A program made the translations under genes and the position numbers. From the IMG/VR virus record IMGVR_UViG_3300029258_003011: a stretch of DNA of 50,432 nucleotides, one strand, 5' to 3'. Below the pieces are notes generated by a model that was not told the DNA's origin, ran no database searches, and saw nothing but the letters and a program-made list of their open reading frames with translations. The DNA is from a virus. Below are positions 5,274 to 5,687 of the stretch, one piece after another; positions within the stretch are counted from its first letter, which is position 1, and the number at the start of each line of letters is the position of its first letter.

Positions 5274-5687
5274 CTATTCTTCCGTATACGTTGCTTTTGA
5301 GTTTTCATTTTCAAAAATGGTTACATAATCCATATAAATACCTCTCGGCAATCTCTGCTGAATTGAAAAGAATAATACATGACTTAATCTTTCAGCAGTA
5401 GGATCAAATGGAAAAGTCATAAGTCTCATATCAGAACATACATTAGCAAGTTCTTCATCTTCTTTATTGAGAAGAAGACAATGATCCCATAAATCAAGAG
5501 ATTCATTTACCAGCGCTTTCAGTTCTGAAAAGTCCATTACCATATCATTGTCATTCAATTCTCTTGATTTTATTCCAATGTGTACGGTAAGATTATGACC
5601 ATGAATGTTCTTACATCGACCAGCATGTTTGCTGAGACGATGACCGGTTGGAACATGGAATTTTTTGTCTATCTTATACATTAACAA
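5274..5687 (-). CDS. queD: QueD-like 6-carboxy-tetrahydropterin / 6-pyruvoyl-tetrahydropterin synthase
   Basis: 137 aa with the QueD/PTPS Zn-binding signature 'CKNIHGHN' and N-terminal 'HVPTGHRLSKHAGRC' (CxxxHGH family). Confidence 0.7.
   Translation of the reverse strand: MLMYKIDKKFHVPTGHRLSKHAGRCKNIHGHNLTVHIGIKSRELNDNDMVMDFSELKALVNESLDLWDHCLLLNKEDEELANVCSDMRLMTFPFDPTAERLSHVLFFSIQQRLPRGIYMDYVTIFENENSKATYTEE

Follow-up and report, generated by a model that had tools for sequence, protein, structure and literature searches.

A QueD-type gene fixed in the replication module of an uncultured phage family suggests a dispersed front end of a 7-deazaguanine pathway

Analysis of a 50,432-nt stretch of viral DNA (IMG/VR record IMGVR_UViG_3300029258_003011; hereafter, the window, meaning this stretch at its full length) revealed that its QueD-type gene, located on the minus strand at 5274..5681, is a strictly conserved core gene of the replication/recombination module of a large phage family and not a stray auxiliary gene. 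QueD enzymes are Zn-dependent T-fold proteins that convert 7,8-dihydroneopterin triphosphate (H2NTP) into 6-carboxy-5,6,7,8-tetrahydropterin (CPH4), the first committed step towards 7-deazaguanines, and H2NTP is formed from GTP by FolE2. In phages, 7-deazaguanine modifications of the DNA are a major escape route from restriction enzymes. The new element described here is a dispersed pair of FolE2 and QueD, accompanied in some members by a phosphoribosyltransferase (PRTase), which is core to a large phage lineage and has an unrecognized back end.

A reasonably probable reading is that this phage carries genes for the front end of such a pathway, consisting of guanine salvage, FolE2, and QueD, and that the back end is either supplied by the host or novel. 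According to this proposal, a Gpt-like PRTase would convert guanine and phosphoribosyl pyrophosphate (PRPP) presumably into GMP, which would proceed to GTP; FolE2 would transform GTP into H2NTP, and QueD would convert H2NTP into CPH4. Since no recognizable QueE, QueC, or DpdA was found, the later steps, i.e., the conversion of CPH4 into 7-carboxy-7-deazaguanine (CDG) by QueE, that of CDG into 7-cyano-7-deazaguanine (preQ0) by QueC, and insertion into nucleic acid, would depend on host QueE/QueC or on phage enzymes that have escaped recognition.

QueD is a core gene of the replication/recombination module

The closest homologs of the QueD protein, sharing 68% and 62% identity with it, are encoded on contigs of 66 and 102 kb with the same neighbors. 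A scan of IMG/VR with an alignment of the QueD clade retrieved 37 loci, and all 30 loci from L008 to L037 (39-60% QueD identity, contigs of 33-248 kb) retain the gene order of the family, namely AAA ATPase, DUF2201, topoisomerase II subunit B, topoisomerase II subunit A, QueD, DEAD/ResIII helicase, SbcD, and SbcC. The conserved neighbor upstream of QueD is topoisomerase II subunit A (6018..7346, minus strand; Pfam DNA_topoisoIV, 1.9e-38), and downstream the helicase (3853..5256, minus strand; Pfam ResIII, 1.7e-21) adjoins QueD in all related loci, sometimes after one small open reading frame (ORF). An initial annotation of the sequence had placed QueD beside both the helicase and RtcB. The helicase adjacency is conserved, whereas only this phage has an RtcB gene in the interval from the helicase to SbcD; relatives carry helicase, small variable ORFs, and SbcD.

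To avoid selecting on QueD itself, loci were also anchored on other genes of the family, i.e., those encoding an 880-aa protein (c8) and SbcC. QueD was found between topoisomerase II subunit A and the helicase in every case (66/66), comprising all 26 viral loci with c8 as the anchor and all 40 loci from JGI metagenomes with SbcC as the anchor. The collection scans were driven by short sequence patterns and gave up to 80 loci each.

The family is composed of uncultured, large, contractile-tailed, myovirus-like phages with two multisubunit RNA polymerases (RNAPs). The two RNAP beta'/beta pairs are separate, one being located upstream of QueD (in the window, beta and beta' at 20438..27553 on the minus strand, recognized by Pfam) and the other approximately 15-20 kb downstream (e.g., L149:17141-22659). 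Hundreds of family contigs come from sediments, saline lakes, and groundwater, and scans with other family genes recovered between 134 and 265 related stretches each, which points to a very abundant family. No cellular QueD homolog with more than 39% identity was detected among 185,579 GTDB species genomes in a pattern-limited scan. The cellular origin of one "Heimdallarchaeaceae" match (P0058) was rejected, as its contig carries the phage synteny. The 15-kb contig L619 (JBQSJN010000098.1), binned in a Heimdallarchaeaceae metagenome-assembled genome, bears the genes for DUF2201, TopoB, NADAR, TopoA, QueD, and helicase, and is a viral contig. Megablast of the first 12 kb of the window against GenBank phages gave no match, and the QueDs of cultured phages found by tblastn were approximately 30-33% identical, with best RNAP-beta' matches of 27%; given such distances, no annotated relative could be used.

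The gene product is a QueD-type enzyme

The minus-strand ORF has its stop end at 5274 and is open up to 5687. These had been the limits first assigned to the gene, and the stop end held, but the 5' end was probably set too far upstream. A Shine-Dalgarno box, AAAGGAGG (5690..5697, minus strand), which overlaps the stop codon of the pilin-like gene upstream, is located 9 nt from the ATG at 5681 and only 3 nt from the TTG at 5687, so that the former is the likely start. The resulting coding sequence (5274..5681) comprises 135 aa plus stop, and gene callers predicted the identical 135-aa protein on 5 public contigs. The protein matched the Pfam family of 6-pyruvoyltetrahydropterin synthases (PTPS; PF01242, E=1.3e-30, 106.3 bits with a cutoff of 22.4) and PHROG 2389 "QueD-like" (E=5e-30).

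Its catalytic motif, C23-K-N-I-H27-G-H29 (Cx3HGH; 5595..5615, minus strand), is the PTPS-I/QueD signature and is invariant in 31 members of the clade. Together with the PF01242 and PHROG 2389 matches, it confirms the presence of a QueD with a CxxxHGH motif, as initially annotated. According to the published signatures, PTPS-I/QueD proteins contain CxxxHGH, PTPS-II proteins CxxxxxHGH, PTPS-III proteins ExxHGH, and hybrid enzymes CExxHGH (PMC5041015), while DpdL, a QueD paralog proposed to be a CDG decarboxylase, has LxxxHRHxF in place of CxxxHGH (PMC10516641). None of the PTPS-II, PTPS-III, hybrid, and DpdL signatures is present in the phage sequence: the residues preceding HGH are G-R-C-K-N-I, with no Cys at -6 and with Lys instead of Glu at -3. 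The protein is therefore a QueD rather than a PTPS of folate or biopterin metabolism.

The remaining catalytic apparatus supports the same assignment. In an alignment with the Escherichia coli QueD, residues H16/C27/H31/H33/D70/H71/E86/E110 of the latter correspond to H14/C23/H27/H29/D66/H67/E97/E124 of the phage protein, and the columns of the zinc ligands, the catalytic Cys, the Asp-His pair, and the Glu are all invariant in the 31 aligned clade members. An AlphaFold2 model built from an alignment containing the E. coli QueD displayed a T-fold (pLDDT 93.9, predicted local distance difference test), and each of its 36 Foldseek matches in the PDB at E<=0.001 belonged to the QueD/PTPS family. 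The motif and catalytic apparatus thus identify the protein as a QueD and predict that it acts as a CPH4 synthase.

The best structural match of the model was the Acinetobacter baumannii QueD2 (7v0f; E=6e-11, TM-score 0.80), followed by the E. coli QueD (3qna/4ntk). By sequence (phmmer), 7v0f was again the best solved relative (E=9e-13), the E. coli and Pseudomonas aeruginosa QueDs scoring approximately 1e-3; the HMMER alignment to 7v0f requires a one-residue gap within the motif. The definition of QueD2 (PMC9894224) comprises a Cx4HGH motif, a C-terminal extension that brings the protein to 190-200 aa, and an additional invariant Cys18. Membership of the phage protein in this group was ruled out on account of its Cx3HGH motif, its length of 135 aa, and the lack of the C-terminal extension. 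In sequence, then, it belongs to a divergent clade which leans to QueD2 and stands outside the QueD2 definition, and which has its own invariant motifs (LNxNDMV.DF, DPTAE, and ENENSKAT).

FolE2 accompanies QueD in related phages

A profile built from type IA FolE did not detect FolE2, and the latter was recognized through the Pfam family GCHY-1. Downstream of QueD, the family synteny was followed in IMG/VR using successive anchors, i.e., c8, the beta subunit of the second RNAP (RNAP2-beta), a TerL-like protein, an 828-aa structural protein, and the tail sheath. The conserved order is helicase, SbcD, SbcC, a radical S-adenosylmethionine (radical-SAM)/SPASM protein (c4), WYL_2, c9, c8, JAB, two ThiF proteins, and an E2-like protein, followed by the second RNAP beta'/beta pair, FolE2, a TIM-barrel protein, further genes, and the TerL-like protein; beyond the latter lie virion genes, including those for a second radical-SAM/SPASM protein and a tail-sheath-like protein. 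The genes for Prok-JAB, two E1-like ThiF proteins, and an E2-like protein with a weak UQ_con match (e.g., L149:12654-16952) form a conserved cassette that looks like a phage-encoded ubiquitin-like conjugation system.

In relatives, FolE2, a GTP cyclohydrolase IB, shares its contig with QueD and is encoded 21-23 kb downstream of it. The assignment relies on matches to Pfam GCHY-1 (PF02649, 8e-63) and to NCBIfam NF010200 (216.6 and 224.2 bits, cutoff 215), with L220:13500-14387 as an example. The FolE2 cluster comprised 78 ORFs from the best 80 loci anchored on RNAP2-beta, and the gene was also present on the closest IMG/VR relatives (3300022674_000045, 3300040801_004532, and 3300033143_006579). 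A close strain (L392), 90% identical in nucleotide sequence to the window over their overlap, shows SbcC, the c4 radical-SAM protein, and WYL_2 after the PRTase gene, as in the family, and therefore the lineage of the window follows the family arrangement immediately past the end of the contig. From the relatives, we infer that FolE2 is also encoded by the phage under study, beyond the end of its contig.

QueD is thus solitary only locally, given that relatives carry FolE2. Within the window it does stand alone, as first reported, with no FolE, QueE, QueC, or DpdA revealed by scans with Pfam and que-family hidden Markov models (HMMs). The accompanying suggestion that its partner genes may lie elsewhere proved right for FolE2, but no QueC, canonical QueE, or DpdA/tRNA-guanine transglycosylase (TGT) was found in the approximately 120 kb of family synteny covered.

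Search for the later steps of the pathway

Annotated FolE, QueD, QueE, QueC/Gat-QueC, QueF, and DpdA proteins from phages Dp-1, NP1, and VpKK5 served as seeds. Loci were searched by phmmer, then by HMMs enlarged with the matches, and additionally by profile-profile comparison (hhalign), Pfam, and PHROG. The procedure performed well on positive controls: the distant QueDs of L038-L044 (<=38% identity) were all found in full que clusters, the same profiles detected DpdA in 27 control loci, and clusters with QueC, QueE, FolE, and DpdA were also recovered among the PRTase loci.

Pfam scans of all minus-strand ORFs of at least 90 aa in the window revealed no GTP_cyclohydroI, GCHY-1, QueC, Radical_SAM, or TGT domain, and que-family HMMs run on its six-frame ORFs of at least 60 aa matched only QueD and the PRTase. 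No que genes appeared in a sister-sample contig (L211) that extends the window by approximately 10 kb past position 50432, nor was any que cluster found within 10 kb on either side of QueD in the family loci L001-L037. In the wider synteny, hhalign comparison of every conserved cluster with QueC, QueE, FolE, DpdA, QueF, and QueD profiles matched only the QueD cluster and radical-SAM cores, and no DpdA emerged when the conserved proteins of unknown function were scanned with PHROG and Pfam. A PP-loop motif search for a cryptic QueC returned only a NadE-like protein in 2 loci. This synteny extends roughly from -55 to +65 kb around QueD, and very distant DpdA or QueC proteins could escape the profiles; the tiles walked in both directions (+65 kb and -55 kb) never overlapped to close a circle, and a single-sequence scan that used a 687-aa protein of L211 as the query gave no match.

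Two conserved radical-SAM/SPASM proteins emerged as candidates for the QueE step. The first, c4 (approximately 345 aa), is encoded after SbcD-SbcC, five genes downstream of QueD (e.g., L392:3816-4850, L024:15746-16774, and L620:17982-19019). Its best solved relative by profile was MoaA (3e-7), with no QueE at E<=0.01, and among NCBIfam models NirJ, PapB, viperin, and MoaA ranked above QueE, which reached 30 bits (cutoff 260). Since the 97.7% probability given by hhalign covers only the 106-column radical-SAM core, c4 was rejected as a demonstrated QueE and kept as a candidate. The second protein, u11 (approximately 335 aa), is encoded in the block of virion genes in 28 loci (e.g., L481:2295-3302, minus strand); its similarity to QueE is likewise limited to the radical-SAM core, and the outcome was the same as for c4.

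The search for FolE, QueC, QueE, and DpdA/TGT homologs that the initial annotation had recommended yielded FolE2 in relatives, but none of the others in the approximately 120 kb of family synteny covered. The failure to find QueC, canonical QueE, and DpdA/TGT in this span means that a standard DpdA-type hypermodification is not demonstrated and, judged by gene content, the whole system falls outside the definition of a DpdA-type phage modification system.

A Gpt-like phosphoribosyltransferase linked to phage que genes

The window also encodes a Gpt-like (6-oxopurine) PRTase of 153 aa plus stop (557..1018, minus strand), recognized by PF00156 with 36.7 bits (cutoff 26.3). The enzyme initially annotated at 557..1042 is hence a real Gpt-like PRTase, but its start is probably not at 1042; the ATG at 1018 is preceded 5 nt upstream by GGAGG. 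Its PRPP-binding loop, VVDDLTDTGKT, is located at 746..778 (minus strand), with a DD..D.G.T core that is invariant in the family alignment. The profile of the family matched solved purine PRTases, namely that of Pyrococcus horikoshii (1vdm, 1e-15), Gpt and xanthine PRTase (XPRT) structures (1e-10 to 1e-11, with the E. coli Gpt at approximately 1e-10), and Sulfolobus Gpt-1/2, which justifies the "Gpt-like" label. The score against the NCBIfam xanthine PRTase equivalog (27.7 bits) was far under the cutoff of 138, so that any base specificity is putative.

The proposal that this PRTase might be related to the salvage of guanine or deazaguanine bases found support in the genomic context of its homologs, which are fused to the FolE of Queuovirinae or located inside phage que clusters. 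Indeed, the N-terminal ~110 aa of the FolE of the Queuovirinae NP1 and VpKK5 constitute a homologous mini-PRTase domain (pairwise E=5e-8 for VpKK5), unrecognized by Pfam in proteins annotated as "GTP cyclohydrolase" (L046:8418-9311 in NP1; L047:8444-9346 in VpKK5). The motifs PRGG and VDDxxDSG are conserved across the family alignment, and WxxFPWE is found in the two FolE fusions and in the window PRTase. L038 carries a stand-alone homolog (E=8e-11) between the QueE and QueC genes of its que cluster.

Among the best 80 IMG/VR matches to the window PRTase, retrieved with search patterns partly derived from the FolE-fused domains, 34 were fused to FolE and 46 were separate. Que genes were located within 10 kb of 30 of the 46 separate PRTases, bringing the FolE-fused or que-linked proteins to 64 of 80. 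The genes near the separate PRTases were QueE (21), FolE (20), QueD (16), QueC (12), and DpdA (1), and two of the 30 que-linked PRTases had FolE2 as the sole such gene. No que gene was located near the two closest matches. Among members of the QueD family, the PRTase was encountered in this phage, in L392, and, at another genomic position, in L285/L286 (near FolE2) and L513. Literature searches revealed no mention of the fusion of PRTase and FolE or of this que-linked PRTase family.

Fate of the product and alternative explanations

Several points weigh against the proposed front-end role. Neither the window, nor L211, nor the approximately 120 kb of synteny covered across hundreds of contigs yielded QueC, canonical QueE, or DpdA/TGT, although family contigs reach at least 248 kb. 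FolE2 was seen only in relatives and not on any contig of this exact phage, and the PRTase is not conserved across the QueD family, so that it cannot be essential to the role of QueD. The score of QueD against the NCBIfam equivalog TIGR03367 (83.3 bits) falls narrowly under the cutoff of 89.25, a miss that fits a divergent, virus-specific QueD clade. In the literature, no experimentally studied phage that makes only H2NTP and CPH4 was found.

As for the destination of the product within the front-end reading, the phage's own DNA is the one we tentatively favor, with a likelihood somewhat short of even, because of the fixed place of QueD in the replication module, its strict conservation, and the modified DNA of the que-gene phages tested in published studies (PMC6884629, PMC10516641). 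The failure to find DpdA argues against this destination. A boost of host queuosine-tRNA is possible at a clearly lower level of confidence, and other outcomes account for the rest.

Taken as an explanation in its own right, the latter role would be one of auxiliary metabolism: a raised flux would let host QueE, QueC, QueF, and Tgt produce more queuosine-tRNA, aiding the decoding of NAU codons. We consider it rather doubtful. It would agree with the presence of front-end enzymes alone, with no DpdA found, and with virome surveys that count folE2 and queD of viruses among metabolic genes (PMC13288924). Also consistent with it is that 81% of the codons for Asn, Asp, His, and Tyr, which together make up 17% of codons, are of the NAU type, but this bias simply follows from an AT-rich genome (34% GC). 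Moreover, the que-gene phages tested had 7-deazaguanines in their DNA, with no tRNA case given (PMC6884629, PMC10516641), the invariable position of QueD in the replication module (66/66) is unlike that of typical, variable auxiliary genes, and tRNA and Rfam scans of the window detected neither phage tRNAs nor a preQ1 riboswitch.

DNA could conceivably be hypermodified without QueC or DpdA, an unlikely scenario. FolE2 and QueD would provide CPH4, a radical-SAM/SPASM protein would replace QueE or perform new ring chemistry, the PRTase would make the nucleotide, and a polymerase would incorporate it; more precisely, the base would be joined to PRPP, as TubE does with CDG, and the nucleotide would be reduced and incorporated before or during replication. 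The strictly conserved place of QueD within the replication module and the conservation of c4 five genes downstream are in line with such a route, as is the near absence of DpdA (1/46) from the que clusters of stand-alone PRTase homologs. Tubercidin clusters without QueC do use CDG together with a PF00156 PRTase and a PF00293 enzyme (bioRxiv 10.64898/2026.04.15.718813), and a class II ribonucleotide reductase is encoded in the window and a MutT-like NUDIX protein in L211. Nevertheless, c4 is not QueE-like beyond its radical-SAM core, MoaA being nearest (3e-7), the PRTase occurs only in some family members, and a distant DpdA may sit outside the parts of the genome covered.

That QueD and FolE2 serve to make folate, biopterin, or another pterin cofactor, perhaps for the MoaA-like radical-SAM protein, is very improbable. 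Enzymes of COG0720 are catalytically promiscuous and often mis-annotated (PMC5041015), FolE2 also serves folate synthesis, the TIGR03367 score is just under its cutoff, and virome surveys list viral folE2, queD, and moaA as metabolic genes and file them under folate/pterin pathways (PMC13288924). Against this role stands above all the diagnostic QueD motif, invariant across the clade, with Lys at -3 and no Cys at -6; in addition, Pfam scans turned up no partners such as sepiapterin reductase, FolK/FolP, or MoaC-like proteins, and the best solved relatives are CPH4 synthases. Finally, a repurposed or non-catalytic T-fold protein, such as a DpdL-like decarboxylase or a structural replication factor, might be imagined from the unusual place of QueD among replication genes and from the different reaction adopted in phages by its paralog DpdL (PMC10516641), but it can be practically dismissed, as the catalytic Cys, the His pair of the motif, the third His ligand, the Asp-His pair, and the Glu are all invariant, and DpdL has LxxxHRHxF.

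Comparison with known systems and significance

The phage QueD shares with that of E. coli (3qn0/4ntk) the Pfam family, the T-fold, the Cx3HGH motif, the three zinc-binding His, the catalytic residues, and a similar size (135 versus 121 aa). It differs in being only 26% identical, in having its own clade motifs, and in residing in a replication module instead of a que operon. Like QueD2 (7v0f), described as a "low-zinc" QueD paralog whose gene sometimes co-localizes with that of GTP 3',8-cyclase (PMC9894224), it co-occurs with a zinc-independent FolE2 and has a MoaA-like radical-SAM gene nearby.

In the literature on phage 7-deazaguanine systems, the DpdA family is treated as the signature and is usually encoded beside preQ0 genes. 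The clusters of phages 9g and Dp-1 and of the Queuovirinae NP1 and VpKK5 resemble the system described here in combining a phage QueD with a GTP cyclohydrolase I and in the small PRTase domain, present in NP1 and VpKK5 as a fusion to FolE. However, canonical clusters are contiguous (FolE-QueD-QueE-QueC or Gat-QueC-DpdA), whereas here QueD and FolE2 are dispersed, 21-23 kb apart; the cyclohydrolase is of type IB and not IA, QueE, QueC, and DpdA were not found, and the QueDs are approximately 30-33% identical. A precedent for a QueC-less pathway that still modifies DNA is Cellulophaga phage phiST, which has FolE, QueD, QueE, DpdL, and a distant DpdA, with 2'-deoxy-7-deazaguanine (dDG) in its DNA (PMC10516641), and whose insertion enzymes were found only by HHpred. 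Nevertheless, phiST has a recognizable QueE and DpdL, neither of which was found in the present family.

Similarities extend to the tubercidin and toyocamycin pathways, which also use a GTP cyclohydrolase I, a QueD homolog, and a PF00156 PRTase, the tubercidin type lacking QueC. These are, however, secondary-metabolite clusters of actinomycetes with a canonical QueE and decarboxylase/reductase tailoring, in which the PRTase loads the deazapurine base onto PRPP.

Literature searches turned up no description of phages with QueD but without QueE, QueC, and DpdA, nor any analysis of this configuration. Yet abundant environmental phages keep QueD invariant, along with FolE2, in the absence of recognizable QueE, QueC, and DpdA. 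If the host supplies the back end, this would represent a previously undescribed division of labor; if queuosine-tRNA is boosted, it would be a role without experimental demonstration in studies of que phages (PMC6884629, PMC10516641); and if unrecognized enzymes act, new chemistry would be involved. Should a route free of QueC and DpdA prove true, the small PRTase family would be an unrecognized general component of phage 7-deazaguanine systems.

Further gene content of the window and its relatives

The window has a GC content of 34%, and all its credible genes are on the minus strand. In this phage, the only ORF separating topoisomerase II subunit A from QueD encodes a pilin-like protein of 103 aa (5697..6008, minus strand) with the type IV pilin N-terminal methylation motif (PF07963, 2.9e-9). 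QueD is separated by 15 nt from this upstream gene and by 17 nt from the helicase gene that follows it. The short gaps and common direction of the three genes suggest that they may be co-transcribed. Pilin-like paralogs recur in relatives at varying positions. In the closest relative (68% QueD identity; L005:8024-9664), a 546-aa N6/N4 DNA methyltransferase with a faint Mrr_cat match is encoded between topoisomerase II subunit A and the pilin-like gene.

Other replication and repair genes identified by Pfam in the window comprise topoisomerase II A and B, the class II ribonucleotide reductase, a RecA-like protein, RuvC, an RFC-like clamp loader, and an SbcD-like phosphoesterase. Pfam additionally identified a baseplate gpV-like protein, an amidase, and a set for RNA/DNA-end repair consisting of the RtcB ligase (2712..3842), a polynucleotide kinase (PNK)-like AAA_33 kinase (40772..41269), a LigD_N 3'-phosphoesterase (43032..43439), and NADAR (12671..13123), all on the minus strand. 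A conserved pair found family-wide upstream of the topoisomerase genes (9828..12354, minus strand) encodes the DUF2201 protein, which is VWA-like and a putative metallopeptidase, and a 410-aa protein with the P-loop motif GPAGVGKT and no Pfam match.

At the start of the window, an HNH/HTH_7 homing-endonuclease-like gene (1..585, minus strand) adjoins the PRTase and is complete (198 aa) in L001:15097-15693. Three independent assemblies end at this gene, and the close strain L392 lacks it, so that the assemblies were probably broken by population heterogeneity at a mobile HNH gene. Past position 50432, L211 continues the same phage for approximately 10 kb with PIF1 helicase, MutT-like NUDIX, GIY-YIG, and unknown proteins. 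Lastly, an 849-aa protein (14304..16853, minus strand), also called on related contigs, contains the shoulder domain of the major vault protein (PF11978, 1.3e-19) and a Vault_3 repeat, which is unusual for a phage.

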